Source: Anaerolineae bacterium CG2_30_64_16 (GTDB taxonomy: Bacteria; Chloroflexota; Anaerolineae; CG2-30-64-16). Taken from it: a stretch of 39,850 nucleotides of DNA. Below the pieces are notes generated by a model. It saw nothing but the letters and a program-made list of their open reading frames with translations. It ran no database searches and had not been told where the DNA came from. This document shows positions 16,110 to 39,801 of this stretch, one piece after another (the stretch's first letter is position 1; every line of letters starts with the position of its first letter). A program made the position numbers and the translations under genes. The stretch lies in assembly GCA_001871755.1 (NCBI GenBank), contig MNXL01000093.1, positions 1 to 39,850 on the forward strand. Reading direction: 5' to 3'.

Positions 16110-16226
16110 AACCGCTGGTGCTACCCTGGCATCCTCCTCGTTGATGAGCGTCACAATCTCCAGCGATGACAGGGTATCAATCGCTGCCGTCCGTGGATTC
16201 CGCGCCTCTGTGGCCGGAACACCTTC
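16110..16226 (-). pseudogene. murQ: N-terminal fragment of N-acetylmuramic acid 6-phosphate etherase
   Basis: Minus-strand translation gives [36 protein letters not shown], which matches the MurQ N-terminus (TE.RN..T..ID..STLE....IN.ED..VA.AV). There is no start codon, and the SIS domain is absent. Confidence 0.6.
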
Positions 16227-16230
16227 TTTC

Positions 16231-16270
16231 CCAATTCACCAATCTACCAATCTACCAACCTCCCAACTCC
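16231..16270. repeat. about 8-nt tandem array (CAATCTAC units)
   Basis: caattcac caatctac caatctac caacctcc caactcc. It overlaps the last codons of the BadF-type kinase. Confidence 0.7.
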
Positions 16271-17181
16271 TTCGCCAGCAACGCTGCCCCCACGGCTGCA
16301 TCGTGGCGAGGCTCGACGACACGCCCATGCGGCGCGACCTCGCTCAACGCAGCGACGACCGTCTCCCACACCAGGTCACGGGCCCGGAGAACGCCGCCCA
16401 GCAACACCACCTCAAAGGCACGGTCACTCATGCCCAGGCCGCGGACGACGGCACACACCGTTTCGCCCAATCGCTGCCCGGCTTCGCGCAGGAGGCCCTG
16501 GGCAACCGGGTCTCCGCTGCGCGCAACCTCACTCACCAGTGGCGCCAACGCGGCCAGTTGGGGCACGCCAAACCCGCCGGCGTAGACCCTTGTCACCAGG
16601 GCATCGGCGCTGGGCAAGCCAAGATGCGACAGAAGCCTGTCCGCCAGGGCCGTGTCCGGCCCCCGGCCATCGTGGGCGCGGACGACAGCCCGCAGCCCCT
16701 CCAGCCCGATCCAGTGGGCGCTGCCCTCGTCGCCGAGCCGGTAGCCCCAGCCGTCGGCGCGCCTTGATTCGCCGCGGGCGTTGACACCGTAGGCGATGGC
16801 CCCCGTACCGGCGATCAGCACTACGCCGTGACGGCGACCAACGCCACCTACCAGCGCCGCTTCGGCATCGTGAGTGACGATTACACTTCGGAAGGGAGCG
16901 ATGTTGGCAAGCATGGCTCGCACAAGCCGCCGATCCTCGGGACGGGCGGCCCCGGCCATACCCAGGCCCACGGCCGTGACGTCGGCTGCCGTCAGACCAG
17001 CGGCGGCCAGGATCCGACGGATCGCCTCCCGCAGCGATGCCTCGGCAACGGCCAGCCCCACGGCATGAACGTTGGACGAACCGCTCACGGTGCGAGCGAT
17101 TTCGTGACTGTTTCCATCCACCAAGACGGTTACCGTTTTGGTGCCACCGCCGTCCATGCCCAGAAAGACATCCTTCGCCAT
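16252..17181 (-). CDS. BadF/BadG/BcrA/BcrD-type ATPase (N-acetylglucosamine kinase-like)
   Basis: 309 aa. FLGMDGGGTKT, LIAGTGAIAYG and GWGYRLGDEGSAHWIG. Confidence 0.8.
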   Translation of the reverse strand: MAKDVFLGMDGGGTKTVTVLVDGNSHEIARTVSGSSNVHAVGLAVAEASLREAIRRILAAAGLTAADVTAVGLGMAGAARPEDRRLVRAMLANIAPFRSVIVTHDAEAALVGGVGRRHGVVLIAGTGAIAYGVNARGESRRADGWGYRLGDEGSAHWIGLEGLRAVVRAHDGRGPDTALADRLLSHLGLPSADALVTRVYAGGFGVPQLAALAPLVSEVARSGDPVAQGLLREAGQRLGETVCAVVRGLGMSDRAFEVVLLGGVLRARDLVWETVVAALSEVAPHGRVVEPRHDAAVGAALLAKELGGW

Positions 17182-17192
17182 TGTCGCTGACC

Positions 17193-17684
17193 TTATGCTG
17201 ATTCTTCGATCATAAGCTGTTGGAAGTTGCGGCCAGGCGTGATCTTGCCCAGCACGACGCGCTGCCCTGCTCCTGTACAGCGGGGCAGGTTGCCCGGCCG
17301 GCCATGGATCGTTTCGTAGGCCAGCACGGCAAAGGCCACCGCCTCTTTGGCGTCGCTGGAAAGGCCGACAGCTTCATGGCTGGTGATGGTGGCAGGGGCC
17401 AGACGCTCGCACAGCATAGCCACCAGGGTCGGATTGCTGGCCCCGCCGCCGCCCCGGATCACCTCGTCGGGCATGTGGGGCAGGAAGCGGCGGTAGGCGT
17501 CGGCGATGGAGGCAGCAGTGAAGGCGGTGAGGGTGGCGACGACGTCCTCGCCGCCCAGTCCCCACGCCCTGGCCCGTGCCCAGACCTCGGCGCCGAAGAC
17601 CGCGCCGAACTGCTCGCGGCCCGTCGTTTTGGGCGGAGATTGGGCCAGGTAGGGGTGGGCCAGCAGCTCTTGGATCGAAAGCAT
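17193..17684 (-). pseudogene. anmK: C-terminal half of anhydro-N-acetylmuramic acid kinase (5'-truncated)
   Basis: LLAHPYLAQSPPKTTGREQFG ... GGGASNPTL ... GRPGNLPRCTGA align to the last ~165 aa of AnmK. The ~200-aa N-terminal half is absent, and a repeat array begins at 17696. Confidence 0.65.
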
Positions 17685-17695
17685 GAGTACTCGCG

Positions 17696-17783
17696 TTGGG
17701 ACGTTGGTAGTTTGGTAGGTTGTGTAAATTGGGGTGGATGCCCCCATTCCCCAATCCCCAATATGCCAATTCCCAATTTACCA
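17696..17783. repeat. imperfect palindrome of TTGGTAG / CCCCAAT-type units
   Basis: The left arm is ttgggacgttggtagtttggtaggttgtgtaaattgggg. The right arm is ccccattccccaatccccaatatgccaattcccaatttaccag. Confidence 0.7.
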
Positions 17784-17837: not shown

Positions 17838-18560
17838 ATGACCGTCCAGATGGTAGAAGTTGTGTCGGCGCCTCCCCGTTCCCGTGCCGGGGAGACTGGG
17901 GTGGAAACGTTTCCCCCCCAAAAGCAAAAAATGACCTACCAGGAATTCCTGGCCTGGGCCGACGAGGATACCCTGGCGGAATGGGTAGATGGGAAGGTGA
18001 TTATGAATTCGCCGGCATCGAGGCGTCATCAGGAAATCAGCAACTTTCTGAATACGCTGTTGACGTTTTATGTCAGTATTCGCGACCTGGGTCGCGTGTT
18101 GTTTGCGCCTTTCCAGGTCAAGCTTGGTCCTGACCTGCCAGGGCGCGAGCCGGACCTGCTATTCGTCGCCAGTGAGCACCTGGACCGGCTAAAAGAGACC
18201 CACCTCGACGGGCCGGCCGACCTGATCGTCGAGATCGTCTCGCAGGAGAGCCAGCAGCGTGATCGCGGCGAAAAGTTCTACGAGTACGAGGCCGCCGGCG
18301 TGAGCGAGTACTGGCTGATCGATCCCCAGCGTCGCCAGGCCGAGTTCTATCAACTGGGGGAAGGGGGCTTTTATCGCCCCGTTCCCCCCGACGCCGAGGG
18401 AGTCTACCGCAGTGCTGTCCTGCCCGGCTTTTGGCTGGACATGGCCTGGCTGTGGCAGACTCCCCTGCCCACGCCGCTCGAAACGCTGCACTTGTTAAGC
18501 GAGATGCTGGGCGGCTCACCCGGCTCCGAGACCGTGCAGGCCTTTTTGAAACAGGTCTGA
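17838..18560 (+). CDS. Uma2-family endonuclease (DUF820)
   Basis: MTYQEFLAW, EPDLLFV and PADLIVEIVSQESQQRDRGEKFYEYEAAGVSEYWLIDPQ. The start may instead be the ATG at 17931. The upstream part of ORF 17220.. is a shadow of anmK. Confidence 0.8.
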   Translation: MTVQMVEVVSAPPRSRAGETGVETFPPQKQKMTYQEFLAWADEDTLAEWVDGKVIMNSPASRRHQEISNFLNTLLTFYVSIRDLGRVLFAPFQVKLGPDLPGREPDLLFVASEHLDRLKETHLDGPADLIVEIVSQESQQRDRGEKFYEYEAAGVSEYWLIDPQRRQAEFYQLGEGGFYRPVPPDAEGVYRSAVLPGFWLDMAWLWQTPLPTPLETLHLLSEMLGGSPGSETVQAFLKQV

Positions 18561-18566: not shown

Positions 18567-18588
18567 ATCCCCAATCCCCAATCCCCAT

Positions 18589-18592
<4 letters not shown>
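18567..18592. repeat. CCCCAAT heptamer array
   Basis: atccccaatccccaatccccattcacc. It overlaps the stop of the oxidoreductase gene. Confidence 0.7.
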
Positions 18593-19860
<1,268 letters not shown>

Positions 19861-19881
19861 GGTCTTCCTTGCTCCTTCCGT

Positions 19882-19967
19882 GGGTTGGTAGGTTGGTAGA
19901 TTGGTAGGTTGGTAGATTGGTAAATTGGGGGGAGTCACCCAATCTACCAATTCCCGATTTCCCAACT
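19882..19967. repeat. inverted 8-nt arrays (GGTTGGTA/GATTGGTA x6 facing CCAATCTA units)
   Basis: attggg/cccaat plus attggtag-type pairing gives at least 14 bp of stem. It lies between the GH20 stop and the oxidoreductase start. Confidence 0.75.
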
Positions 19968-22015
19968 CACATATCGGGCCAGTTCTGCCACAGGGTGCGA
20001 TAGTCGTCTGGATCATAGGTAGACAGGTTGGCATCCACCGGCTGGCCGGCCAGGAGCGCCTTGCGTTGTTCCAGCAACCAGGCGGTGGCGGCCTTGTAGC
20101 GGGTGCGCAGGTTGGCAAAGTAGCCCAGCGACACGTGGATCTCGCTGCGGCGGGCGCGGGCCATCCACAGCGCCTCGAGCTCGGCGCGCAGGTCCTCCAG
20201 CTTGCTGTCCAGGCCGCGGATGGCCAGGTAATGCTCGTACAGCCGCGCCGCATTCTCCGCGACCGGCTCCGGCTGGGCGGCAAAGGCATTCAGGTCGGCG
20301 CGGACCGCCTGCGATAGCGCCGTCTTGCGGCCAGCGTAGGCCGTCAGCCGGGCCGCGGAAGCCATCTCCAGCAGCGTCAGCGCGCGCGGGTGGTCGGGGG
20401 CCAGGACATCGCAGGTTGCCGCCGCCGACTCGGCCAGGGCTTGCATCTCGGCCAGTGTCTCGGCAGGTAATGCGCCCTCGCCGGCCACGGTCGTGCCGGT
20501 GAGCGGCTCGTCGAACAGGGCCAGGACGGTGTGTGAACGGTTGCGGTTGTGGACGCCGGGCAGGTCATTGGTGCGGGCCAGTTGGTGGAGCGCTTCCATG
20601 ATGGCCTCGTGGTCCTCGCCAAAAAAGAGCGGGCCAAAGGCAGCGTCGAAATCCTCGTCGCTCGTCGTGCCGCCGGTCCAGCCCTGGGCTGCGCCAAAGA
20701 GGTAGCCGTGCCAGCTCAGGCCAAAGTGCTGGTAGTGGCCATAGTCGCCCCAGTCGGTGTTGAGCAGGCCCTCGGCGCCAGCGGCCACCCCATCGCGCAC
20801 AAAGTTGCGGATGTTGACGTTGGCCCCATAGAGCCGGGGGAAGATGCTGTTCCACGAGCCGACGCCGGGGCAGACCCAGAATTTACGCCCCGCCTCGGCG
20901 AAAATCCTGGCCGTGGGGTACTCGTCGGCGGGGGCATAGTGCCAGTCGAGCAGCGTCACGTCGTCGGGCACCTCATCGATGAGTTCTGGATAGTGGAGCA
21001 GGATGTCGCCCCAGACCTGGGTGCGGCGCCCGAGCCGGGCGGCCAGCTCGCGCACGCGCAGGATGTGGTTGAGGTAGACGCGCCCTACGCCGATTTCGTC
21101 GGCCTGTCTCTTGGTCGCGCCCTTGCCCAGGTCGTAGGTCTCGTCGCAGCCGACGTTGAACGTGGTCGAGGAAAAGGCAGGCAGCATGTCACCAAAGAGC
21201 TCGGCCAGCAGCGTGTAGGTTTCCTCGAAGGCCGAGCTGAGCGTCCAGAGCATGTCGGTCTCGGCCAGGTGCTGGTACTCGGGCAGCATCAGGAGACTGC
21301 GCAGGTGACCGAAAGAATTCAGATTCGGCATCAGCTCGATGTGACGCTCGCGGCAGAAAGCGTCGAGCTCCAGAATGTCCTCGCTGCCGAGGGAGCCGCA
21401 GCCGGCGCCGATCTTGGGATGGCGGGGAAACTGGAAGGTATGCTCGGTGTAGAGCTGCAGCACATTGACCTTGGAGTGGCTCAGCTCCTCGGCCAGGGTC
21501 TTGAGCGTGGTCAGGGTCGGCACCTTGCGCCGCGAGATGTCGAGCATCAGGCCGCGATAGGCCAGGGTGGGCCAGTCGCGGATTTTCAGTGTGGGCAGGG
21601 TGGCGCCCTCCAGCCGTATCAACTGGCGCAGGGTCTGGACGGCGTAGAACAGGCCGGCCGGCGCGTCGGCGTAGAGCACGATGCGCCCCCGCTGGATGGT
21701 CAAAGTGTAGGCCTGGCCCGCCACGGCCTCCGGCGCGTCGAGGGTGACCGGTTCCAGGCCAAAGGCAGCAGCCTGTTCCTGCCCACAGACGAGCAGAACA
21801 ACGTTGTCGGCTCGCGGCGGCGCGTAGGCTTTGACGATAGCCAGGAGTAGCCCTGTCTTCTGCCACACTTCCTCTTGGAGCTGGCGGGCGGCAAAAAAGG
21901 CTCCATCCCCAGCCTGGGCCGGGATCAAGATGAGCGAGTCGGCGTCCAGGGAGTACAGCCCCTTGACGAACATCAACTCTTTCGGTTCGGGAAGCAAATG
22001 CAGCGTCATTTTCAA
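19967..22015 (-). CDS. GH20 beta-N-acetylhexosaminidase-like protein
   Basis: 682 aa. IRDWPTLAYRGLMLDISR, NVLQLYTEHTF and the catalytic-pair context FNVGCDETYDLG. No signal peptide. Confidence 0.8.
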   Translation of the reverse strand: MKMTLHLLPEPKELMFVKGLYSLDADSLILIPAQAGDGAFFAARQLQEEVWQKTGLLLAIVKAYAPPRADNVVLLVCGQEQAAAFGLEPVTLDAPEAVAGQAYTLTIQRGRIVLYADAPAGLFYAVQTLRQLIRLEGATLPTLKIRDWPTLAYRGLMLDISRRKVPTLTTLKTLAEELSHSKVNVLQLYTEHTFQFPRHPKIGAGCGSLGSEDILELDAFCRERHIELMPNLNSFGHLRSLLMLPEYQHLAETDMLWTLSSAFEETYTLLAELFGDMLPAFSSTTFNVGCDETYDLGKGATKRQADEIGVGRVYLNHILRVRELAARLGRRTQVWGDILLHYPELIDEVPDDVTLLDWHYAPADEYPTARIFAEAGRKFWVCPGVGSWNSIFPRLYGANVNIRNFVRDGVAAGAEGLLNTDWGDYGHYQHFGLSWHGYLFGAAQGWTGGTTSDEDFDAAFGPLFFGEDHEAIMEALHQLARTNDLPGVHNRNRSHTVLALFDEPLTGTTVAGEGALPAETLAEMQALAESAAATCDVLAPDHPRALTLLEMASAARLTAYAGRKTALSQAVRADLNAFAAQPEPVAENAARLYEHYLAIRGLDSKLEDLRAELEALWMARARRSEIHVSLGYFANLRTRYKAATAWLLEQRKALLAGQPVDANLSTYDPDDYRTLWQNWPDM

Positions 22016-22027
22016 CCTCCTCTATGG

Positions 22028-23266
22028 TTAGTCGCTTGCTACAGCACAAATCAGACGATTCTTTTGCACATCAACGAGACGGAAGAACGAGACGGACAGG
22101 GCGATCGCCGCCACGTTCAACAGGCCGACGATGGCGAACGGCAGCCCAAGGGCAACGTCCATCAACGCGCCGCCGAGCATCGAGCCGCCGATCATGGCCA
22201 GGTTCCACAGCACGCTGAGTGCGCCCAGCACCCGGCCGCGCTCCTCGACGACCGCCGATTCGGAGACCAGGACGGGCAAGAGCGTGGCCAACGACCAGGC
22301 CGCGGCAATGCCCGGCACGCCAAAGGTGTAGTAGCTCCAAAGCTGCGTGGCGAACACGCCCTGCCCGGCGATGGCCACGAGCAGCAGGCCGAACATCGCC
22401 AGGGTCGGGCGGCGGCTGCCCCAGCGGTCGGAGGCCCGCCCGACGACGATCTGCGCCAGCGTGGCCACCACCTGGCTGAGGGTGACGTAGAGGGCCACGG
22501 CAGTCTTGGTCCCGGCCAGGCGGTTGATCAGCAGAGGGTTCAACACCACGATCATACCATAGTAGCAGGTGGGCAGGAAACGCAGCAGGCCCAGGAGCAC
22601 CATCGACGGGCGGCGGACGACCTGCCCATAGCCGAGCAGGGTTGCGCCGACCGAGTGGGTTTGCTCGCCGGCCCCGCGCTGGAACCGGGGCAACAGGAGC
22701 ACTGCTCCCACCACTGTCGCGCCGGAGAAGGCCAGCAGAGCCAGCCCAAAGGCAGCGAAGCCCTGATGGTCCAGTACAAAACCGGCCGCCGGGCTGCTCA
22801 ACGCTCCACCAAGCGTGTAGCCCCAGTTGTACAACGCCGAGAACAGCCCCAGGCGCCTGGGGTTGGCGGCGTCGATCAGGTAGCCCATGCCCCCCAGAGT
22901 GTGAAATCCCGGCCCCAGGCCGCCCAGGACCCAGAACGCCAGGACCAACCCTGGCACCCGGCTCAGGTAGGCCAGGTTGGCCAGCGTGATCCCCAGCAGG
23001 CCCAGGACCAGCGTGCCTTTGTGCCCCACGGTGTCGGACAGCGCCCCACCGACCACCGAGGCGATCATGCCCAGCACCAGCCCCAACGAGACAAAGGTCG
23101 AGACGAGAACTGCCGGAAAGCCCAACTGCTCCTCGACGTAGATGGGGAAAAACGAGCGCTGCGGCGAGAGGATGATGCCGCTGAGCAGCATCACCAGCAA
23201 AAAGAACACGATGGGCCAGTCGCGGAAACGGGTGGTGACAGCCCGGGCCTTGAGTTTTCCGATCAT
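22028..23266 (-). CDS. MFS transporter
   Basis: About 12 hydrophobic segments. The start MIGKLK (ATG at 23266) overlaps the upstream stop as ATGA. Confidence 0.8.
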   Translation of the reverse strand: MIGKLKARAVTTRFRDWPIVFFLLVMLLSGIILSPQRSFFPIYVEEQLGFPAVLVSTFVSLGLVLGMIASVVGGALSDTVGHKGTLVLGLLGITLANLAYLSRVPGLVLAFWVLGGLGPGFHTLGGMGYLIDAANPRRLGLFSALYNWGYTLGGALSSPAAGFVLDHQGFAAFGLALLAFSGATVVGAVLLLPRFQRGAGEQTHSVGATLLGYGQVVRRPSMVLLGLLRFLPTCYYGMIVVLNPLLINRLAGTKTAVALYVTLSQVVATLAQIVVGRASDRWGSRRPTLAMFGLLLVAIAGQGVFATQLWSYYTFGVPGIAAAWSLATLLPVLVSESAVVEERGRVLGALSVLWNLAMIGGSMLGGALMDVALGLPFAIVGLLNVAAIALSVSFFRLVDVQKNRLICAVASD

Positions 23267-24438: not shown

Positions 24439-24450
24439 GATCTCGCCAAC

Positions 24451-26079: not shown

Positions 26080-26124
26080 CTAATCCCCAATTCCCAATCC
26101 CCAATCCCCAACCTGCCAACTCAC
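26080..26124. repeat. CCCCAAT/TCCCAAT heptamer array
   Basis: taatcccc aattccc aatcccc aatcccc aacctgcc. It overlaps the stop of the fusion gene. Confidence 0.7.
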
Positions 26125-30776: not shown

Positions 30777-32711
30777 CTACTGGTTGCACGGATAGAGCGT
30801 GCCGTCCAGGATCATCATGACGGCAAAGGAATCGGCGTAGGGGCTGTTCTTGTAGATCGGGTCGTCGTCCGGCAGCCAGCCACAGGTATGCAAGCCGTCC
30901 ATGGCCGGGTTGTTGCCATAGCGCTCCCAGAGTGGGATCTGGGGCAGCAGCTCATTGTAGGCCTTGGCGGTCTCGGCCACCATCGCCTTCTGGGCCGCGG
31001 TATCCAGGCCCTGGGGCATGTTGTCGATGTTGGTTTCAAAGTCAAAGTCGCCGCAGCAGTCGGTGGTCTGTTGCAGGGTGAAGCTCATGCCTGGACCTTG
31101 CGTGCCCAGGGCAGGATCGGCCGCCAGGGCGGCACCGGTGACCGCCTCACCGTTGTGGGTGTACAGATCCTGGACGAAGGAGAAGTGCGGGTGCGGGTTG
31201 CCAGAACCCCAGGCGCGAATGGCGAGCTGGAAGTTGCCCTGGTTCACGTTGATGGGGTGCTGGCGGAACTCGACGCCGCGGAAGCTGGTGGGGATGCCAA
31301 AGGCGGTGAGCTGCTCGGCCACGTTCTCGGCGGAGGCCGACCAATCGGCGTACTCGGCCGGTGCGGTCAGCTCGTACTCCATGCGGTCGCCCTTGTCGGT
31401 GACCCACACACCGTCGGCGCCCTTGGTGAAGCCCAGGCCGGTGAGGATCTGCTCGGCCTTGGCCGTGTCGTACGCGTACTTGTCGAGGGCATCGACGTCG
31501 TCCACCCAGAGCGGAACGATGTTGTCGCTAAAGCCGGTCATGTACACCACGGCTTTACCCGACTCGCCCAGGGAGACGGTGCCGTTCTCGTGGCGGTCGA
31601 TGGCGTAGGCCAGGGCCTGGCGAACCTCTTTGACGTTGAAGGGGTAGATGGTCTGGTTGAAGTAGAGTGCCGGGCCGGAGTAGATGGGCGGCCGCAGGAT
31701 GCGGACTCCCTCGCCGACGAACGCCTTTTCCGTCGCTGGCGGGAAGCCGTGGGTGGCATAATCCACCTGCATGGCCAGGACCAGCGGGGTGACGGTGGGC
31801 GTCTCGCCGTTGTAGATGTAGACCTCGTCGAACTTGACCGTGTCGGCCAGCCAGGACGACTCGTTCTTGACCAGGGTCAGGCGGGCCTCGTTGAGGCTCT
31901 TGGGGTCAACGTTATACGGGCCGGTAGCGTTGATGGCTTCGGGCCGATACTCGTTGAATTGCTGCAACAAGGCATTCCACTCATCCGAGGCCATATCCTT
32001 GCCCTCGTCCAGCAGGGCCTGCACCTTATCCGACCACTCGCCGTAGGTGGCCCGGTCCACGATGTACTCGTTGCGGATGACGTAGCGCTCGACGACGATC
32101 GAGGGCTCGCTCATGGAAAAGACGACGGTGTGGTCATCCACGGCCTCGACCTTGTCCAGGAAGCGCCAGACGGTGCCCTTGGCCAGGCGGCGGCAGTTGA
32201 AGGTGACGACCACGTCTTCGGCTGTAAAGTCGTCGCCGTTGCTCCACTTGACGCCCTCGCGCAGCTTGACGGTGAGGGTGGCCGCCTCCTGGTCAGTCTT
32301 CCACTCGGTGGCCAGAAGGGGCATCCAGGAGCCATCGGCCCAGTAGTACATGGCCAACGGCGGCTGGAACAGCGAGCGGTAGATGCCGATGGCGATAGCG
32401 TTGGTGGCGAATTCGTTGAAGTGGCCCACCGGCGGGACCTGGTAGGGATAGGCGCCGGCGAACACGCCGCCAGGCTTCGGGGTGGCCGTGATCACCTTCT
32501 CCACCTCGACCGGCTTCTCCACGACCTGGGTCACGACCTTCTCCACAACCTGGGGCGTGCCCTCGACGACGACGGTCTCTTTGACCGTCTTTTCCACAAC
32601 TTGGGTGACGACTTTTTCGACCACCTGCGGCTCCGAGATGGGTGCGCAAGCGGTGAGCAACATCGCCACCACGATCAACAAGCTGGCCATAGAAAACAGT
32701 TTCTTACTCAC
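30777..32711 (-). CDS. ABC transporter substrate-binding lipoprotein (family 5, peptide/oligosaccharide type)
   Basis: GTG start 7 nt after AAGGAGG. Lipobox LLTAC. There are repeated VVEKVVTQVVEK linker units before the SBP_bac_5-like body. Confidence 0.85.
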   Translation of the reverse strand: MSKKLFSMASLLIVVAMLLTACAPISEPQVVEKVVTQVVEKTVKETVVVEGTPQVVEKVVTQVVEKPVEVEKVITATPKPGGVFAGAYPYQVPPVGHFNEFATNAIAIGIYRSLFQPPLAMYYWADGSWMPLLATEWKTDQEAATLTVKLREGVKWSNGDDFTAEDVVVTFNCRRLAKGTVWRFLDKVEAVDDHTVVFSMSEPSIVVERYVIRNEYIVDRATYGEWSDKVQALLDEGKDMASDEWNALLQQFNEYRPEAINATGPYNVDPKSLNEARLTLVKNESSWLADTVKFDEVYIYNGETPTVTPLVLAMQVDYATHGFPPATEKAFVGEGVRILRPPIYSGPALYFNQTIYPFNVKEVRQALAYAIDRHENGTVSLGESGKAVVYMTGFSDNIVPLWVDDVDALDKYAYDTAKAEQILTGLGFTKGADGVWVTDKGDRMEYELTAPAEYADWSASAENVAEQLTAFGIPTSFRGVEFRQHPINVNQGNFQLAIRAWGSGNPHPHFSFVQDLYTHNGEAVTGAALAADPALGTQGPGMSFTLQQTTDCCGDFDFETNIDNMPQGLDTAAQKAMVAETAKAYNELLPQIPLWERYGNNPAMDGLHTCGWLPDDDPIYKNSPYADSFAVMMILDGTLYPCNQ

Positions 32712-32838
32712 AGTTCATCCTCCTTGTCAACTAAGCATTTGGTTGAACGTACAATCAGACAGTCAAACTGATTCTATGGGCTATCACCCCCTTTCAGGCA
32801 GTGGAGCGCACGATTCATCGCAACGATTCGAAGAGCAG

Positions 32839-32955: not shown

Positions 32956-33015
32956 GCTTGCCGGTCCAGTCTCTTCTTATCCTGTCATTTGCTGCGATCC
33001 CCATGTTCTCCGGCA

Positions 33016-33201: not shown

Positions 33202-33215
33202 AGCCCCAATTCCCC

Positions 33216-34196
33216 CTATCCTGTAACCCTGTGACAGGCTACCTGATGCCCGTTTTCGCCCACTGACTTCAGTTTCGGCGCTACCCGGTCGCATAGTCCT
33301 TCCTCAAAAAGCGGGCAACGCGGGTGAAACCGGCAGCCTGGGGGCAGGTTACGCAAGCTGGGAATGTCCTGACTACGGAGCGTTATCGGTTTCTTGCGCC
33401 GGGTCAAATTCGGATCGGCTTCAGGCACAGCAGCCAGGAGAGCCTTGGTATAGGGGTGTTGCGCGTTGTTGATCAACTCTGGCGTGGATGTAAGCTCAAC
33501 GACGCTACCCACATACATCACGGCGATGCGCCCTTCCCAGGCGAAGAATTTAGCCAGCGCCAGGTCGTGGGTGATGAACAGAAAAGTGACGCCCAACTGC
33601 ATCCTCAAGCGGGAGAGCATTTTGAGTAGACTGACTCGGATAGAGACATCCACCATCGAGACGGCCTCGTCGGCGACAATGAAGCTGGGATTGACAGTGA
33701 GAGCACGGGCCACAGACACACGCTGGCGCTGGCCACCGCTCAACTGGTGGGGATATTTGGTCAGGAAATCCTCAACCGGGGTCAAGTCCACGATCTGGAG
33801 CAATTCGACGACCCGCTCCCGCGCCTGCCGGCGGCCATTCACAAGATTATGATGCAATAAGGGGGCACTCAGGATCTGGTGGACGGTGTGAGACGGGTTC
33901 AGCGAGGCGTAAGGATCCTGATGGATGATCTGCACCCCCAGCCGGTACTTTCTGAAGCTTTCTTTGTCTTGCGTCCAAACATCCTGACCCTGGTACCGGA
34001 TCCGCCCACTGGAGGGTTTGAGCAAGCCGGCCAGCAGCTTGCCCGTGGTCGTCTTGCCACAGCCGCTTTCACCCACCAGACAGAGGACCTCTCCCTCACT
34101 GATACCCAGGGAGACGTCGTCCACCGCCGTCACCCTTTCGCGGCGGCGGCCAAACTGCCGGGTCAGGTTGTGCGCTTCGATGAGGTACTCGGTCAT
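33216..34196 (-). CDS. ABC transporter ATP-binding protein (OppF/DppF-like)
   Basis: Walker A GESGCGKTT, signature LSGGQRQRV, Walker B FIVADE. It has the C-terminal oligopeptide-type extension. Its start overlaps the upstream stop as ATGA. Confidence 0.88.
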   Translation of the reverse strand: MTEYLIEAHNLTRQFGRRRERVTAVDDVSLGISEGEVLCLVGESGCGKTTTGKLLAGLLKPSSGRIRYQGQDVWTQDKESFRKYRLGVQIIHQDPYASLNPSHTVHQILSAPLLHHNLVNGRRQARERVVELLQIVDLTPVEDFLTKYPHQLSGGQRQRVSVARALTVNPSFIVADEAVSMVDVSIRVSLLKMLSRLRMQLGVTFLFITHDLALAKFFAWEGRIAVMYVGSVVELTSTPELINNAQHPYTKALLAAVPEADPNLTRRKKPITLRSQDIPSLRNLPPGCRFHPRCPLFEEGLCDRVAPKLKSVGENGHQVACHRVTG

Positions 34197-35257
34197 GCTG
34201 CCTCTCCTGCTGCGACGTGCCCGGTTCCCTCCCATATGGCATCGGCGTCCCGCCGGACCTGGTCGACATGGAAACAAGCCACACTGTGATCTGGCCCATA
34301 CGGCTCCAAGGTCGGCTCCTCCTGACGACACCGATCGGTGGCATAGGGACAGCGGATGTGAAACTTGCAGCCGGTGGGCAGGTCGATCAGGTCGGGCGGC
34401 GAGCCGGGGATCGAGATCAGGTCTTGGAAATCGCCGGTCACGGTCGGCACGGCCCGGATCAGGCCCAGGGTGTAGGGATGCGCCGGCCGGTAAAAGATGT
34501 CGTAGACCAGGCCAAGCTCCACAATGGCGCCAGCATACATGGTGGCCACCCGGTCGGCCAACTCGGCTGCGATGGACAGGTCGTGGGAGATGAACATTAG
34601 TGAGAAGCCCATCTCTGCTTTCAAGCTTTTCAACAACTCCAGGATGGTGCGCTGAGTCAGGATGTCCAGGGCCGTCGTCGGTTCGTCGAGGATGATGATT
34701 TGGGGATCCAACAGCAAGCTCATGGCCAGCAGCACCCGCTGTCGCATACCGCCGCTCAATTCGTGGGGGTAGGAGTCGATGACCCGTTCCGGATCGAGCT
34801 GCACGTGGCGTAGCAGGCTCAGCGCGCGCTCGCGCATCTCAGATTGGGACATCCGCCAGTGGGCGCGTATGGTATCGTACATCTGGTCCCTGATGCGCAA
34901 CACCGGGTTAAAGGCGTTGAGCGCCGACTGGAAGACCATGGCGCATTCGCACCAACGGAAGTGTCGCATCTCGCGCCCTTTCAGTTTGAGCACGGCTGTC
35001 TCCCTCCCGCTTCGACGGTACAAGATCTCACCCTGGGAGATGCGGGCTGTCTTGACCAGCAGCCGGATGAGCGCCAGGCCCAGCGTCGTCTTGCCGCAGC
35101 CACTTTCGCCGATGAAGGCCAGGCTTTCCCTGGGTCGCAAGTCAAAGGTCACGCCACGTACGGCCTTCACCATACCTCGCTCGCCGAGATACTCTACCCA
35201 CAGATTCCGCACGGAAAGAGGATTGGTGTCCCAGATCGTGGCGTTCTCGTCCTTCAT
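34193..35257 (-). CDS. ABC transporter ATP-binding protein (OppD/DppD-like)
   Basis: GESGCGKTT, LSGGMRQRV and IIILDEPT. Confidence 0.88.
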   Translation of the reverse strand: MKDENATIWDTNPLSVRNLWVEYLGERGMVKAVRGVTFDLRPRESLAFIGESGCGKTTLGLALIRLLVKTARISQGEILYRRSGRETAVLKLKGREMRHFRWCECAMVFQSALNAFNPVLRIRDQMYDTIRAHWRMSQSEMRERALSLLRHVQLDPERVIDSYPHELSGGMRQRVLLAMSLLLDPQIIILDEPTTALDILTQRTILELLKSLKAEMGFSLMFISHDLSIAAELADRVATMYAGAIVELGLVYDIFYRPAHPYTLGLIRAVPTVTGDFQDLISIPGSPPDLIDLPTGCKFHIRCPYATDRCRQEEPTLEPYGPDHSVACFHVDQVRRDADAIWEGTGHVAAGEAA

Positions 35258-35263
35258 GTCGGT

Positions 35264-36169
35264 CTATCTCCCGGCTCGTAGTCTGGGATTAAAGATCTCT
35301 TCCAGAGAGCGGCTCATCCAGACAATGGATAACTGGAACAAAGCAATGGCGACAACGGGGGCCATGATGAAGTAGATGCTGTCTCTGAAAAAGATGGCTC
35401 CTTGCGTCCAGGCCAGGTTGATCATCACCCCCCAGTTCCTGGTAAGTGGCACCAACCCCAGGAAAACGAGGCCAACCTGGGCGTAAATCGCCGCGGTCAT
35501 GGCCAGGGTAAAGTTGATGGCGATGTAGGCCATCATGTTGGGCAGGATCTCGGAAAAGATGATGTGCCGCAGTCCCAGGCCGAGGGCAGTGGCCGCCTCG
35601 ATATAGTCCCGCTCCTTGATAGAAAAGACCTGGGCGCGAATGGCCCGGTACAGCCCGGCCCACGACAGGACGGCCAGGATCAAGGCCAGGGTGATGATGT
35701 TATTCAATGTAATCAGACCAGCCAGCACAGCCAGGAGCGGGAAGCGGGGAATGGTGAGCCAGACGTCGGCCAGGGTCGTCAGGAACGAGTCGAGTGGACC
35801 GCCGATGACGGCGCTCAAGGACCCCAGGCTCACACCGATAAAGGTGGCGATCATCCCGGTGAGGAAGGCCATGACCACGATGTCTCTGCCGCCGTGCACG
35901 ATCTGGGCCCAGATATCCTTGCCCTGGCTATCCGTGCCTAGCAGATGTTCGCGGGAAGGGCGCTCGTAGATTTTGGTGATATCGGCCTTGTGTGGCGCCG
36001 GCACAAAGTAGGGCATGATGAAAGCCAGGAAGATAAAGCCGAGGATCATCAGTGTACCGACAAAGCCCACCTTGTTCCGTGTCAGATTGCGCAAAAAGAT
36101 ACGGAAGGAATGCCCAAGATCAGATAGAAATCTGGATAAGCCATTTGCCGCTGCTGTGTTAGAGGCCAT
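35264..36169 (-). CDS. ABC transporter permease (OppC/DppC-like)
   Basis: Six hydrophobic segments and an EAA-like loop, YIEAATALGL. The ATG at 36169 lies just after the upstream stop. Confidence 0.85.
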   Translation of the reverse strand: MASNTAAANGLSRFLSDLGHSFRIFLRNLTRNKVGFVGTLMILGFIFLAFIMPYFVPAPHKADITKIYERPSREHLLGTDSQGKDIWAQIVHGGRDIVVMAFLTGMIATFIGVSLGSLSAVIGGPLDSFLTTLADVWLTIPRFPLLAVLAGLITLNNIITLALILAVLSWAGLYRAIRAQVFSIKERDYIEAATALGLGLRHIIFSEILPNMMAYIAINFTLAMTAAIYAQVGLVFLGLVPLTRNWGVMINLAWTQGAIFFRDSIYFIMAPVVAIALFQLSIVWMSRSLEEIFNPRLRAGR

Positions 36170-36170
36170 G

Positions 36171-37265
36171 TCATTCCCCTCCAGCGATCCGAACACGCGG
36201 ATCCAGCCAACCGTAGGCATAATCCGCCAGCAGGTTGGAGAGGATCACCGCCATGGTGATAACCAGGAAAATGCCCTGCATCACCGGGTAGTCGCGGGTG
36301 TTGATCGCCTCCCGCAATTGGAAGCCAATCCCCTGGTAGACAAAGATGAATTCGATGAGGATCGAGCCGCCGACGACAAAGCCAATGCTGATGGCCAACT
36401 GGGCGATGAGCGGCAATGAGGCATTGCGGCCCACGTAGGCGCTCGTGATGCGGCCCTCCGTCAGGCCTCGCGCCCGAGCCACGGTGACGTAATCCTCCCC
36501 CAGCGTGCTGATGGTATTGCTCTTCATGGTTAACAGCCAGCCGCCAAAGGTCGCCAGCACGTAGGTGGCAATGGGCAGCGCCGCGTGGAAAAAGATGTCC
36601 TTGATGAATTTCAGCGTAAAGCCCGGCTGGATGCCCGGCGTCGACGAGCCGCGCATGGCGTGGATGGGCACGATTTCCCAGCGCACCCCCAGGTAAACCA
36701 ACAAGAGAATGCCGATGATGTAATCGGGTACCGAGCTCAAGAAAGAGCCTATGGCCGACACAACCGGCTCCCAGGCGCTGTCCCGGCGATAGGCCGAGAG
36801 CATACCGAGGGTCATGCCGATGCTGAAACTGATCAGCAGGCCCACCCCCACGCTGAAGATCGTCCAGGGCAAAAACCGGGCGATGATGGCCGTGACCGGC
36901 GTCCCCGGCGAACGCAGCGAGGTGCCCATGTTGCCCTGAACCAGATTACCCATATAGTCAACATACTGCTTCCACAGCGGCGCGTCCAGGTCTATCGCAA
37001 AAAGCGAGGCCGCCTGGTCTCTGGCTTCCGGGTAGGTGAGGCTATACTGCACGATCAACTCATTGATGTACACCTCGATAGGGTTGGACGGCATCAGCCG
37101 AACCAAAAAGAAGATCAGCGTGGTCACAAACCAGACGGTGAACAGGGCTTTGCCCAGCCGCCGCACCAGGTAGTTGGAGGCGATGGTCCTCGCGATACGG
37201 CCAGGAGAAACCTTGGCCTTTCCTTGCGATGCTGTCGCTACACTCAAGTCAGACCTCCTCTTCAA
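36171..37265 (-). CDS. ABC transporter permease (OppB/DppB-like)
   Basis: N-terminal RRLGKALFTVWFVTTLIFFLVRLMPSNP and an EAA-like loop, YVTVARARGL. Confidence 0.85.
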   Translation of the reverse strand: MKRRSDLSVATASQGKAKVSPGRIARTIASNYLVRRLGKALFTVWFVTTLIFFLVRLMPSNPIEVYINELIVQYSLTYPEARDQAASLFAIDLDAPLWKQYVDYMGNLVQGNMGTSLRSPGTPVTAIIARFLPWTIFSVGVGLLISFSIGMTLGMLSAYRRDSAWEPVVSAIGSFLSSVPDYIIGILLLVYLGVRWEIVPIHAMRGSSTPGIQPGFTLKFIKDIFFHAALPIATYVLATFGGWLLTMKSNTISTLGEDYVTVARARGLTEGRITSAYVGRNASLPLIAQLAISIGFVVGGSILIEFIFVYQGIGFQLREAINTRDYPVMQGIFLVITMAVILSNLLADYAYGWLDPRVRIAGGE

Positions 37266-37274
37266 GTTGACCAG

Positions 37275-38081
37275 CTACCCATGCTTTTCGACGATCCTGA
37301 CCATCTGCTCGAATTTCTCTTCCATATCCTGGACCATCTTGAACTGGGTTCGGCAACGGTCCAGGTTGTGGCCCTCTCGATGAACCTCCATGACGTTGTT
37401 GAACTTGGTGTCGTTGTGCGTGATGCGGCGGGGAAGCGCTCCCTTGTCCAACAGATCGACGAGGATTGGCATCTCCTCAGCCCGCTGCTCTACGAACTCG
37501 ATCTCGGCCCTGGCCGTCTGAGCGCGGTTCCTGGCATCCCTTTCCACAGACCGGACAAAGGCGTCGAACCGTTTCGGCGTGTGGTGAAAGTCCGGGATAG
37601 TTTCGTACAGTTGCTCCGCCGGGAAATCGCTGACCAACTGCTGGAACTTACCGAACGCCTTTCCGGCATTGTAAAAGTGATCCAGGTGCGCCACGACCTG
37701 GTAGGTTTGGGCGCCTTCGATAAAGACATACGCCCGCCAGTAGTTGCCCTCGGTCGTTTTGTAAAAAGTCCTGCCATCCACCGTGGGAATGAGATTGAGC
37801 GTCTCCCGCTCCGGATCGCCGCCGGCAGCAATGATTTTCTCCCGGAGGTGGACGGTCACTTTTGCGATGTTGTGCATCAACTCTTCGGGATGCCTGAACA
37901 CCTCGTGGTTGATCCGCTGCAAGATGTAGCGATGGACCACGCCATCGGCTTTGCGAAAGCGGGCGGCGTAGGTGCCATTGATGTGCCCGATACCGCAGCG
38001 CTGGGCGTCCAGAAACTCGCCCTCGAACGCGAATTGGGCGACGATGGATCGAAAGTCGGGCCTCATCGAGCATTCCCTCAC
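37275..38081 (-). pseudogene. nahK: N-acetylhexosamine 1-kinase-like (NahK/AmgK-type APH-fold kinase) with an apparent ~100-aa in-frame internal deletion
   Basis: GHINGTY, YILQRINHEVFRHPEELMHNI and ITHNDTKFNNVM are followed directly by the family C-terminal end, HNLDRCRTQFKMVQDMEE. The IDLDT metal-binding segment expected in between is missing. Confidence 0.6.
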
Positions 38082-38140
38082 AGACTCTCTGGCTGTGTCG
38101 CGGCTGAACTACATGCGCCGCTCCTCGCCATCAGCCGCCA

Positions 38141-38568
38141 TCAGCCGCCGATGGCCGGCAGGCTGGCGGCCGCGATGGACTGTCCCACGCGCCGGCTCTT
38201 TTCGTCCGGCAACTGAATGTTGGTCCGTGCGGCAAGCTCTGGAAACTCGGCCCGGAGCACCTTGTGGGCGCCATCCAGGATGAGTTGCCCCCCCTGCCTG
38301 AAGTGCAGCGCCCGAGAACGAGCACGTGCTTCAATTCGTAGAAATCGGCATAGTGAGCGATGGTGTAGCCCATGTAGATGCCCATGCTCTGCCAAATCTG
38401 AAGCGCCCCTTCGTGGTCGGCTTCCAGTCTCTCCTGGACAAGTTTCAGCTTTTCAGCATTAGGCATGTTGTCGGGCATCTTGATCCCGGCTTTCGGCGCC
38501 AGCCGGAAAACGCATTGCTGGGAGAGGTAGGGTGCGCCCCAGCCTCGGTCTCCCGACCACTCGTCCAC
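38141..38568 (-). pseudogene. C-terminal fragment of a ROK/ASKHA-type sugar-kinase-like protein, frameshifted
   Basis: Two ORFs (38131..38568 and 38141..38395) join into ...VLVLGRCTSG-RGGQLILDGAHKVLRAEFPEL...LPDEKSRRVGQSIAAASLP if one G is added to the G7 run (plus-strand C7 at 38288-38294). The N-terminal ~250 aa are missing. Confidence 0.5.
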
Positions 38569-38582
38569 CGAGGCCGCGTGCG

Positions 38583-39801
38583 TTACGCCGCGGCCTCTGG
38601 CGTGGCAAACAGTCCCAGTTCGCGGTTCAGGACCAGGGCCGATGCACCCAGGATCACAATCTCCGAGTCCATGCTCGACAGCCCGATCTCGGTTTCGTTG
38701 GCCAGAACAGCCAGCGAGCGTTTGACCATCTCCTGCCGGATCGCATCCAACAGTATCTGTCCAAGGCGAGCCACGCTGCCGGCGATCACAATGCGCCGGA
38801 CACTGAGCAGACCGACAACGTTGGCAGCCGCGATCCCGAGGTACTGTCCGGCTCGCCGGACCATCTGCTGCACCTGCTCATCACCGGCCTCCATCGCCCG
38901 GCAGATAGTCTCGATCGTGATCTCTTCGGGGCTGGCGGCAAAATGGTTGAGGCGAGAGTCCGGATCGTTGGTAGCGAGAGATTGGGCCTGGCTGATAATC
39001 GCGCGCGCTGGCCACTGTTTCAAGGCAGCCGAAATTGCCGCATCGACACTGCCTGCCATTCGCGACCACGGCGACGTGCCCGATCTCCCCCGCGCCAAAA
39101 GTCTCGCCGTGGAAGATCTGTCCATTCAGCACGATGCCAGCGCCGATGCCTTGCCCCACTTTGACCACGACCAGGTTCTCCACACCCGGCCCGTCGCCAA
39201 AGGTGTACTCGCCCAGGGCCGCCACCTGCGAATCGTTGGCTACGTACACCGGCAGGCCGTACCGCTCTTCCAACAGGGCCCGCAACGGCAGGTCGTGCCA
39301 GTTCAGGTTGACCGAGCGGCGCACGATGCCGTTGGTGGCATCCATCAAGCCCGGCGAGCCAATGCCGATGCCCAGCAGAGGGTTGTCGGTTGCAGCTATC
39401 AGATCTTGGACCATCTCGTACACGAGTGCCAGAGCGGCCTCACCGTCTCGATTGTGCAAAGGTACATTGATCTGGTGCCGGACCTGGCCGTGCAGGTTCA
39501 CCACTGCGCCACGGAACTCGGCGCTGGCCAGGTCAATACCGATGAGGTGGCGGGAGTCGGCGACGATACTGAGAAGGATGGGGGGTTTGCCACCTGCCGA
39601 CGGACCATAGCCGATTTCTTCTACCAGTCCCTGGTCCATCAGGTCTGTGACCACGTCGGAAACGGTCGTTCGGGTAAGTCGAGTCTCGCGAGCCACGTCA
39701 GCCCGGCTGATCTCTCCGCGCTCGTAGATGATCTTGAGCACCAGGCGACTGTTGTGGACCTTCGTCTGTTTGCGGGTTGCCTTTTGTGCCACTCGTCGCA
39801 T
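38583..39801 (-). pseudogene. ROK-family transcriptional regulator (NagC/XylR-like) with an apparent frameshift
   Basis: It has an N-terminal wHTH (LVLKIIYERGEISRADVARETRLTRTTVSDVV) and the ROK motif CRCGNFGCLETVAS. The frame changes inside the CG-repeat run 39000-39008 and continues as RAIISQAQ... in ORF 38583..39125. Confidence 0.7.

Follow-up and report, generated by a model that had tools for sequence, protein, structure and literature searches.

A 39,850-nucleotide (nt) stretch of the genome of the groundwater bacterium Anaerolineae bacterium CG2_30_64_16 (contig MNXL01000093.1 of assembly GCA_001871755.1), referred to here as the window, carries on its minus strand, from position 39801 to position 16110, a run of genes that we cautiously read as a variant of a supercluster, conserved among Anaerolineae-type Chloroflexota, for the salvage of cell-wall fragments containing N-acetylhexosamine (HexNAc). 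A role of this type of cluster in the cytoplasmic salvage of peptidoglycan and amino sugars is proposed because related loci share its core and also hold intact genes for PF00144, AnmK, NagK, and MurQ proteins. In the window itself, the transporter, the glycosidases, the peptidase, a GlmU-like/phosphohexomutase fusion, and NagK are intact, and five genes located at both ends of the cluster are remnants: the ROK regulator, a second sugar kinase, NahK, AnmK, and MurQ. The arm leading from N-acetylmuramic acid (MurNAc) to N-acetylglucosamine (GlcNAc) and the anomeric-kinase arm have therefore been lost locally. An earlier note on this DNA had proposed the uptake of oligomers and their intracellular dismantling; this stands as a function of the cluster type, as judged from related loci, whereas the support drawn from AnmK, MurQ, NahK, and a nucleotidyltransferase fails in the window.

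Organization of the gene cluster

The window has a G+C content of about 63%, and its raw lists of open reading frames (ORFs) are full of shadow ORFs; genes were selected by third-position GC, by profile searches (Pfam and NCBIfam), and by gene calls on public contigs carrying the same DNA, and the pathway reading draws on homology and synteny at each of its mechanistic steps. Read from 39801 to 16110, the genes are co-directional with short gaps or overlaps, as had been noted earlier. The first half of the run comprises the ROK regulator, a sugar-kinase-like remnant, NahK, OppB, OppC, OppD, OppF, an SBP_bac_5 lipoprotein, CutC, and an M81 peptidase, and the second half comprises the fusion, a NAGPA-type glycosidase, NamZ, an MFS permease, a GH20 hexosaminidase, a Gfo/Idh/MocA oxidoreductase (GFO), a plus-strand Uma2 gene, an AnmK fragment, a BadF-type NagK, and a MurQ stub (Table 1). 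The families and the order that the earlier note had listed are retained, and the family names, including NamZ, NAGPA, and NahK, survive profile and structure searches, but AnmK, MurQ, NahK, the ROK regulator, and the second kinase prove to be remnants.

Intergenic gaps in the run range from -8 to 27 nt, except for 504 nt between OppF and the solute-binding protein (SBP), 166 nt between the SBP and CutC, and three further gaps of 68, 106, and 64 nt. The ATGA stop/start overlap at the OppD/OppF junction (34196-34193) is read directly from the sequence, and the M81 stop and the fusion start share 8 nt (ATGAGTAA, 28304-28297), both as previously described; the junction at 23266 between NamZ and the MFS gene, reported as another ATGA, is TGATG with a 1-nt overlap. 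Thirteen consecutive genes match profiles and orthologues (57-83% identity) over their full lengths, have a third-position GC of 0.75-0.88, like the housekeeping genes of the window, and are 99.9-100% identical in assemblies from several samples. The SBP is the only protein with an N-terminal hydrophobic signal (lipobox LLTAC), as had been claimed; none is present on the glycosidases or the peptidase, and the other hydrophobic proteins of the cluster are the permeases and the MFS protein only.

A recurrent layout in related loci

About 40 related loci were assembled, anchored on the NAGPA-like protein. Alignment of the full protein against a genome collection was saturated by the generic NLDGGGS pattern and gave roughly three useful loci, and alignment of its N-terminal half against metagenomes gave 31 specific loci. 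Orthologues of the cluster genes in syntenic relatives are 56-85% identical. The fusion lies directly upstream of NAGPA, or with only a NagA-like amidohydrolase between them, in 16 of the 24 loci whose upstream part is long enough to judge. Immediately before the fusion comes the gene of a candidate anomeric kinase, which is of the GHMP type, sometimes with a galactokinase signature domain, in L090, L093, L094, L099, L100, L105, and L111, and of the NahK type in L107 (5525-6620). This replacement is a non-orthologous displacement and speaks for a sugar 1-phosphate as the compound that the fusion receives.

NAGPA is usually followed, in this order, by MFS (found in this place in nine related loci), GH20, and a GFO of about 425 residues, which follows GH20 in L090, L093, L094, L099, and L103. 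Upstream of the kinase are M81 and CutC, which are syntenic in L093, L094, L099, L105, and L129, sometimes together with an alpha/beta-hydrolase, three tandem GFO paralogues, and an Opp/SBP5 importer. CutC, M81, the kinase, the fusion, and NAGPA occur in exactly that order in L094, L099, and L105, and L093 has the same set with an abhydrolase, a second MlrC-like gene, and an AP_endonuc_2 gene interposed. M81 is missing from L100 (CutC, kinase, fusion, NAGPA), and the fusion is missing from L129 (8934-11632), where a GHMP kinase is followed directly by NAGPA and the CutC-M81-GHMP-NAGPA order is otherwise kept.

Intact genes of the PF00144/AnmK/BadF/MurQ set follow the core in L090, L093, L098, and L107. 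The gene orders are PF00144, MlrC, GHMP, fusion, NAGPA, MFS, GH20, GFO, PF00144, AnmK, and MurQ in L090; MlrC, CutC, MlrC, GHMP, fusion, NAGPA, GH20, GFO, PF00144, AnmK, BadF, and MurQ in L093; fusion, NagA-like, NAGPA, GHMP, NamZ, SIS, PF00144, AnmK, and MurQ in L098; and GFO, AnmK, BadF, MurQ, SIS, NahK, fusion, NagA, and NAGPA in L107. L094, with OppDF, SBP, CutC, MlrC, GHMP, fusion, NAGPA, MFS, GH20, and GFO, shows the importer next to the core. The gene-neighbourhood comparison that had been suggested for this cluster thus bears out a shared core accompanied by intact AnmK, BadF-type NagK, MurQ, and PF00144 genes, and sometimes by NagA and NamZ.

The window is accordingly a variant of a recurrent, conserved Anaerolineae-type layout that has gained or kept NamZ and the importer and has eroded at both ends. 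The layout had been described as one not recognised; literature searches yield no description of it, and nothing relevant on peptidoglycan recycling in Chloroflexi, but it recurs in Anaerolineae-type genomes and is not unique to the window. Among the genes of the relatives, a GHMP kinase, PF00144, and the tandem GFO trio were not found in the window, nor were NagA or extra SIS homologues. The absence of NagA and of an amidase from the window agrees with the earlier note, whereas that of nagB applies only to the ORFs scanned with Pfam, a set that leaves out several of those in 1-15356 and in which the domain does not occur; no homology search was made with a NagB of the Glucosamine_iso type.

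Three tandem GFO paralogues lie between the SBP and CutC in L090 (827-3914), L099 (1-2898), L105 (1384-4465), and L129 (3231-6453), and an AP_endonuc_2 gene (xylose-isomerase-like TIM barrel) is found in some loci (L093, 5719-6474; L100, 2154-2891). This set is reminiscent of oxidative glycoside-cleavage modules.

Erosion at both ends of the cluster

The NagC/Mlc-like regulator is distributed over two ORFs (38881-39801 and 38583-39125) by a single frameshift near 38990, and it cannot be read as one uninterrupted ROK/NagC-type repressor. Pfam places ROK positions 2-182 and the winged helix-turn-helix in the first ORF and ROK positions 190-293 in the second, and the NCBIfam NagC model is similarly divided (positions 9-264 and 265-383). 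In a three-frame reading, the CxCGxxGCxE zinc motif is kept as CRCGNFGCLE, after which the frame changes. What the earlier note had called a ROK-like kinase fragment (possibly 38583-39125) is the regulator's own C-terminus after the frameshift. The adjoining second kinase remnant, in which ...YELKHVLVLGRCTSGRGG runs on in a different frame as QLILDGAHKVLRAEFPEL..., has no Pfam or NCBIfam match and, by inspection alone, resembles the C-terminal portion of a sugar kinase of the ASKHA type.

The NahK-type kinase, a protein of the APH fold, matches Bifidobacterium NahK (PDB 4wh1/4ocj) with E 7e-46, but residues 21-240 correspond to NahK residues 10-215 and the alignment then jumps to 324-350, leaving reference residues 216-323 without a counterpart. 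The HxDxxxxN motif of the catalytic loop is kept (THNDTKFNN, aligned with THNDTKLNN of NahK). Compared with a 90%-identical orthologue of 366 residues (P0242), exactly 103 residues are gone, including the metal-binding VVDLDTV segment, and the 119 other listed homologues are 334-399 residues long. The C-lobe, with its metal-binding Asp segment and sugar-binding region, is thus incomplete, and the enzyme is probably inactive.

At the other end, the AnmK gene covers only positions 218-366 of the 367-position Pfam model, and searches by tblastn with the intact AnmK proteins of L093, L090, and L098 match only residues ~226-384, which falls short of a full-length two-domain ASKHA kinase of about 370-440 residues. 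The site of the absent 5' half to two-thirds is occupied by the oppositely oriented Uma2 gene, flanked by short repeat arrays, and AnmK appears to have been destroyed when Uma2 inserted into or replaced part of it. Inverted repeat copies (16227-16267 and 19884-19924) bracket the block of GFO, Uma2, the AnmK remnant, and NagK. Of MurQ, a SIS-domain protein of about 300 residues when complete, only a stub remains, 31 of whose 34 residues (91%) are identical to the intact L093 protein; the MurQ queries from L098 and L090 return the same stub, and nothing more is found downstream. The region in which the rest of MurQ would be expected (15357-16110) contains a perfect 24-nt tandem duplication (15602-15649) and a minus-strand ORF of 90 residues (15829-16101) without a family match.

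An assembly or sequencing error was considered as the origin of these lesions and rejected. NahK, Uma2, and AnmK are arranged identically in L001, a groundwater contig of 27 kb (99.94% identity, 11 mismatches), and L096 and L097, from other samples (98.8% and 99.3% identical), show the same split of the regulator; because the lesions recur in independent metagenome assemblies that differ by single-nucleotide polymorphisms, they are not assembly artefacts. AnmK, MurQ, and NagK had all been cited as established recycling enzymes in the locus, and of these only NagK is intact. Since AnmK and MurQ, the two most diagnostic genes, are stubs, a pathway inferred from this genome alone would overstate its capacity.

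The GlmU-like/phosphohexomutase fusion

The N-terminal domain of the fusion matches the uridyltransferase domain of Streptococcus pneumoniae GlmU (E 5e-39), and the sugar- and uridine-binding motifs LGTGHA, GDTPL, YGRI, and GEYxxTD align between the two proteins. The GlmU signature LxxGxGTR...PK (LAAGKGTRMKSDLPK) aligns with LAAGQQTITADREPL of the fusion, which contains neither the Arg nor the Lys that are catalytic in GlmU. The corresponding motif in the 120 closest fusion homologues (73-91% identical) is LAAGKEAITADxxPxVLQ, so that both residues are absent family-wide. Residues 260-727 form the phosphohexomutase, in which the phosphoserine, metal, sugar, and phosphate-binding loops are all present (TASHNP, DGDADR, GESSGG, and RFSGTEP; PDB 1wqa, E 4e-65), and there is no left-handed beta-helix acetyltransferase domain. 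A HexNAc-phosphate mutase activity is the safer assignment for the fusion, while a pyrophosphorylase activity is doubtful because the GlmU catalytic Arg and Lys are absent from the whole family. The bypass from MurNAc 1-phosphate to UDP-MurNAc proposed earlier is likewise unsupported in the window, because NahK lacks its metal-binding segment and the nucleotidyltransferase domain lacks the GlmU catalytic residues.

The fusion stands alone in L007, a 5.2-Mb Chloroflexota genome. In Terriglobales (L008/L009, 10001-14746), a 73%-identical fusion lies between MFS and GH94 (chitobiose/cellobiose-phosphorylase family) genes, in a neighbourhood that also holds a GntR/UTRA regulator and TonB-type receptors. 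This copy suggests horizontal spread or a very conserved role in handling GlcNAc 1-phosphate, and its context resembles the pairing of a GlcNAc 1-phosphate mutase with a chitobiose phosphorylase in the (GlcNAc)2 operon of Vibrio (PMC5209532), the same logic being found in Acidobacteria (PMC6252331).

Import, glycosidases, and other enzymes

The Opp/Dpp-type importer is complete, with two BPD_transp_1 permeases, two ATPases with oligo_HPY tails, and the SBP_bac_5 protein, and the SBP is unusually the last gene of the set, behind the 504-nt non-coding gap (32712-33215). Within this gap, Rfam reveals no riboswitch or other RNA element (its only hit, a tRNA-Cys, lies in another part of the window), and scans for promoters and terminators give background signals only. 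Among solved proteins, the SBP is best matched by binders of mannosides and cellobiose from Thermotoga and of chitin oligosaccharides from Vibrio, at modest E values of 6e-19 to 1e-11; it would thus be nearest to the sugar-binding branch of the Opp family and not to MppA/OppA-type peptide binders. The MFS protein gives weak efflux-type matches in NCBIfam, and an AmpG identity was dropped, as no AmpG-family model of NCBIfam matches it. The transporter/regulator part (32000-39850) has a G+C content of 0.575-0.61, against 0.64-0.68 in the enzyme part (20000-30000), and the two halves may differ in history.

The NAGPA-like protein belongs to a subfamily of about 530 residues. The sequence NLDGGGS is invariant in 17 homologues, and the DGGGS loop has been identified as the determinant of GlcNAc 1-phosphate recognition in a 2026 structural paper (PMC13474241). 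An AlphaFold model (predicted local distance difference test score 86, predicted template modelling score 0.89) retrieves only NAGPA/DUF2233 structures among its top 15 Foldseek matches, all with probability 1.0. The full-length subfamily is small, with about 25-30 clusters (50% identity) in a set of 1.84 billion representatives, and its named members are mostly from Chloroflexota or Anaerolineae.

NamZ matches both of its domain models (NamZ_N, E 6e-80; NamZ_C, E 4e-59) and, over residues 2-383, a DUF1343 structure from Bacteroides fragilis (PDB 4k05, E 2e-76); its LFGPEHG aligns with LYGPEHG of that structure. GH20 is divergent (PDB GH20 matches at E 4e-13) and has an extra C-terminal region of about 300 residues; the Asp-Glu pair 291-292, within NVGCDE at residues 286-292, is called catalytic by motif only. 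The best named relatives of the GFO are UDP-GlcNAc(A) 3-dehydrogenases and glycoside 3-dehydrogenases, at weak E values of 1e-16 to 1e-6. NagK shares 70% identity with its L093 orthologue along the entire protein and matches NCBIfam NagK_SO3507 (E 3e-36) with 125.6 bits, under the 370-bit cut-off.

CutC reaches 256 bits in NCBIfam, under the 311-bit equivalog cut-off. The M81 peptidase matches PDB 3iuu (E 5e-51) and MlrC (7ylq, E 2e-43), but its orthology to the microcystinase MlrC was rejected, at 163 bits against a cut-off of 999. The characterised relative, MlrC, is a cytoplasmic enzyme that cuts an X-D-Glu (Adda-Glu) bond. For neither CutC nor M81 did literature searches yield anything relevant to the metabolism of amino sugars or peptidoglycan.

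Table 1. Genes and gene remnants of the cluster, in the order of the minus-strand run
Feature	Position	Strand	Support
NagC/Mlc-like ROK transcriptional regulator, frameshift-split	38583..39801	-	Pfam, NCBIfam, three-frame reading
Sugar-kinase-like (ASKHA/ROK-type) remnant, C-terminal part, frameshifted	38141..38568 (about)	-	Three-frame translation
NahK-type N-acetylhexosamine 1-kinase, internal 103-residue deletion	37275..38066	-	PDB NahK 4wh1/4ocj
ABC permease, OppB/DppB type	36171..37247	-	BPD_transp_1, E 1e-35; NCBIfam Opp/Nik models; L001 gene call
ABC permease, OppC/DppC type	35264..36169	-	BPD_transp_1 and OppC_N; NCBIfam Opp4C, E 1e-55
ABC ATPase, OppD type	34193..35257	-	ABC_tran and oligo_HPY; OppD subfamily, E 4e-87
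ABC ATPase, OppF type	33216..34196	-	ABC_tran and oligo_HPY
Lipoprotein solute-binding protein, SBP_bac_5	30777..32711	-	E 8e-55; LLTAC lipobox
CutC-family TIM-barrel protein	29813..30610	-	Pfam CutC, E 6e-73
M81 metallopeptidase, MlrC-like	28297..29805	-	DUF1485/M81, E 5e-88; MlrC_C, E 1e-52
GlmU-like nucleotidyltransferase-fold/alpha-D-phosphohexomutase fusion	26121..28304	-	NTP_transferase and PGM_PMM I-IV (Pfam), NCBIfam
NAGPA-type phosphodiester glycosidase (DUF2233), ~530-residue subfamily, no signal peptide	24451..26052	-	PF09992, E 4e-21
NamZ (GH171, DUF1343) exo-beta-N-acetylmuramidase homologue, no signal peptide	23266..24438	-	NamZ_N and NamZ_C
MFS permease (MFS_1/MFS_1_like)	22028..23266	-	Pfam; ten hydrophobic segments
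GH20 beta-N-acetylhexosaminidase, divergent, no signal peptide	19967..22009	-	GH20b, E 1e-15; GH20, E 2e-11
Gfo/Idh/MocA oxidoreductase, 423 residues	18589..19860	-	Pfam
Uma2-family putative endonuclease	17838..18560	+	PF05685, E 3e-36
AnmK remnant, C-terminal 159 residues only	17199..17675	-	Pfam AnmK, tblastn
BadF/BcrAD-type N-acetylglucosamine kinase, intact	16252..17181	-	PF01869, E 2e-45
MurQ remnant, codons 7-40 (34 codons)	16110..16211	-	tblastn with L093 MurQ

Proposed pathway and competing explanations

In the proposed salvage of cell-wall fragments, the SBP, the ABC importer, and the MFS permease would bring oligomers of the GlcNAc/MurNAc type, with or without peptide, into the cytoplasm, where GH20 would cut terminal beta-GlcNAc and NamZ terminal beta-MurNAc, alternating from the non-reducing end. 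Peptide stems would be handled by the M81 peptidase. GlcNAc would be converted to GlcNAc 6-phosphate by the BadF-type NagK, the mutase half of the fusion would interconvert HexNAc 6-phosphate and HexNAc 1-phosphate, and the GlmU-like half may bind, and possibly convert, the 1-phosphate; the NAGPA-like enzyme is predicted to hydrolyse a GlcNAc-alpha-1-phosphodiester. In the intact relatives, anhydro-MurNAc would additionally be converted to GlcNAc 6-phosphate via AnmK and MurQ, and a GHMP- or NahK-type anomeric kinase would feed the fusion. The features that support this reading are the family assignments by profiles and solved structures, the lack of secretion signals outside the SBP, the tight co-directional packing with overlapping stops and starts, the synteny, the likeness of the SBP to sugar-binding Opp-family proteins, and the NAGPA fold with its DGGGS motif.

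Several points weigh on the other side. The only peptidoglycan-specific genes that are intact in the window are NamZ and, less specifically, NagK, and the other intact genes are judged to fit the use of chito-oligosaccharides or other HexNAc glycans equally well. The fusion, which is also found alone and beside GH94 in Terriglobales, is not specific to peptidoglycan, and its nucleotidyltransferase-like domain is without the canonical catalytic residues. A MurNAc-L-Ala amidase was not found in the window. The substrates of the SBP, MFS, GH20, M81, CutC, GFO, NAGPA-like, and fusion proteins are all predicted from their families, and the genome may carry anmK, murQ, and other genes in intact form outside the window.

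It is possible, though rather unlikely, that the locus now serves to take up and use HexNAc glycans such as chito-oligosaccharides and that its peptidoglycan arm is a decayed leftover. With its Opp-type importer of chitobiose-like sugars, its GlcNAc-phosphate mutase, NagK, and a GH20 enzyme in the cytoplasm, it would be similar to the Vibrio (GlcNAc)2 operon, which pairs a phosphorylase with its mutase, and the chitin-oligosaccharide- and glycan-binding relatives of the SBP, the survival of GH20 and NagK next to dead AnmK and MurQ genes, and the Terriglobales fusion between MFS and GH94 with its GntR regulator all point in the same direction. However, the gene for NamZ, whose family comprises exo-N-acetylmuramidases, is intact and shows translational coupling with the MFS gene, chitinase, GH94, and GH18 genes are not in the window, and the relatives consistently have AnmK, MurQ, and PF00144 beside the same core. 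Alternatively, the entire locus could be decaying and without function, with the five independent lesions at the two cluster ends, a foreign Uma2 insert, and a broken regulator as the visible part, but 13 consecutive genes remain full-length, with high third-position GC and near-identical sequences across the assemblies of different samples, and the catalytic motifs that were checked are intact, which makes a locus that is no longer functional very improbable.

A peptide importer with peptidases (Opp, CutC, and M81) could also lie by chance beside a separate amino-sugar module, given that annotations usually assign both Opp-type transporters and M81 peptidases to peptide systems and that the SBP is set off from its neighbours by the 166-nt and 504-nt gaps. 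Such a coincidence is highly unlikely in view of the 8-nt overlap of the M81 and fusion genes, the order of CutC, M81, kinase, fusion, and NAGPA kept in three related loci (and the same set, with genes interposed, in L093), and the resemblance of the SBP to sugar-binding and not peptide-binding family members.

Beyond the salvage reading itself, there is an outside chance that the conserved core (anomeric kinase, fusion, NAGPA-like protein, MFS, GH20, GFO, CutC, and M81) constitutes an undescribed route of peptidoglycan-sugar recycling with two unusual steps. In one, a cytoplasmic "uncovering" enzyme would take alpha-GlcNAc off GlcNAc-1-phosphate-6-MurNAc, and the resulting MurNAc 6-phosphate would pass to MurQ. 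GlcNAc-1-phosphate-6-MurNAc is the linkage-unit stub at which wall polymers attach to muramic acid, and Chloroflexus walls carry polysaccharide on muramic acid 6-phosphate. The removal of alpha-GlcNAc from a diester at C6 of muramic acid by the NAGPA-like enzyme is a speculation from the chemistry of the family and from this wall structure. In the other step, the fusion would run a deacetylation-free interconversion of GlcNAc 6-phosphate and GlcNAc 1-phosphate, possibly onward to UDP-GlcNAc. Mycobacterial MurNAc recycling has been inferred in a 2026 preprint (PMC13041923) to proceed via a "GlcNAc but not glucosamine intermediate" by enzymes that are not known, and the fusion is, by analogy, a candidate for such a step.

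Comparison with characterised systems

The murQ-murR-murP-amiE-nagZ-namZ operon of Bacillus subtilis (PMC8054146) likewise combines the exo-muramidase NamZ with an exo-N-acetylglucosaminidase and MurQ, its AmiE belongs to the PF00144 family found in relatives of the locus, and fragments are trimmed sequentially by exo-lytic action from the non-reducing end. In B. subtilis, however, NamZ, NagZ, and AmiE are secreted and monosaccharides enter via the phosphotransferase system, whereas here the hydrolases have no signal peptide and ABC and MFS transporters are present. The hexosaminidase is of the GH3 family there and of the GH20 family here, MurQ is a stub in the window, and the B. subtilis operon has nothing that corresponds to CutC, M81, the NAGPA-like protein, the GFO, or the fusion. 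According to the same paper, which does not mention Chloroflexi, NamZ is largely missing where AmgK and MurU occur.

Gram-negative recycling, which proceeds through AmpG or Opp, NagZ, AmpD, and AnmK and then through MurQ (E. coli type) or MupP, AmgK, and MurU (Pseudomonas type), shares with the cluster type permease-based import, cytoplasmic dismantling, AnmK, and an anomeric kinase beside a nucleotidyltransferase-fold protein. In contrast, the window has no match to an AmpG model, no AmpD, and no GH3 NagZ, the kinase is of the NahK or GHMP type, and the nucleotidyltransferase-fold domain is fused to a mutase and is devoid of the Arg and Lys. The pathway for galacto-N-biose/lacto-N-biose (GNB/LNB) in Bifidobacterium longum, in which NahK acts with a uridylyltransferase and an ABC importer, is similar in its NahK-family kinase, its ABC importer, and the nucleotidyltransferase-fold protein in the locus, but NahK is internally deleted here and neither a GalT/GalE-type partner nor a phosphorylase accompanies it.

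The Vibrio (GlcNAc)2 operon (VC0611-VC0620; PMC5209532) also has an Opp-family importer with a sugar-binding SBP_bac_5 protein, cytoplasmic handling of a HexNAc disaccharide, a sugar kinase, and a GlcNAc 1-phosphate mutase. It differs in its GH94 phosphorylase, which the window does not have, and in its mutase, which here is fused to a GlmU-like domain; moreover, NamZ and, in the relatives, AnmK and MurQ tie the present cluster to muramic acid. The mannose-6-phosphate uncovering enzyme NAGPA and the bacterial DUF2233 proteins (PMC13474241) share the fold and the invariant DGGGS loop with the NAGPA-like protein. Characterised NAGPA is a Golgi or secreted enzyme and the solved bacterial homologues are annotated as exported, whereas the subfamily of about 530 residues has no signal peptide, is found mainly in Chloroflexota, and is linked in the genome to the fusion with its sugar-phosphate mutase.

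Other features of the window

Tandem repeats of 7-8 nt (ATCTACCA/TTGGTAGA, AATCCCC, AATACCC, AGGGATT, ATCGGAA, and GCAAGGG) fill many spacers on both sides of the window, with arrays at 2351-2414, 8488-8611, 12605-12633, 13264-13506, 16238-16266, 17695-17775, 18567-18587, 19883-19928, and 26078-26111. The long ORFs 18589-20289 (GFO) and 17193-17747 (AnmK) were trimmed, their 5' parts being translated intergenic tandem repeats.

The remaining window (1-15356) holds a histidine kinase, a tRNA-Cys, a glycosyltransferase, and an ilv/leu operon. The tRNA-Cys(GCA) gene (1746-1819, minus strand) lies near the glycosyltransferase gene (2419-3594, minus strand), whose product matches QTMAN_N, the N-terminal domain of tRNA-queuosine alpha-mannosyltransferase, in its N-terminal domain (E 4e-57). 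Positions 4971-15356 of the plus strand form a branched-chain amino-acid operon, in which the large and small subunits of acetolactate synthase, ketol-acid reductoisomerase, a LeuA-type synthase, and an aconitase-family LeuC are confirmed by Pfam; a LeuD-like ORF (12650-13258) and a second synthase ORF (13767-15356), possibly citramalate-synthase-like, are assigned by position and translation only.

Implications

The recycling of peptidoglycan and amino sugars is well worked out only in a few model bacteria, and little is known of wall recycling in Chloroflexota, which are abundant in groundwater, sediments, and sludge. The window is a caution against annotation by gene names. The cluster type to which it appears to belong points to a fully cytoplasmic dismantling strategy and would tie five poorly understood families, namely the NAGPA-like glycosidase, the fusion, CutC, the M81 peptidase, and the GFO of about 425 residues, to HexNAc metabolism, making them concrete candidates for enzymology.

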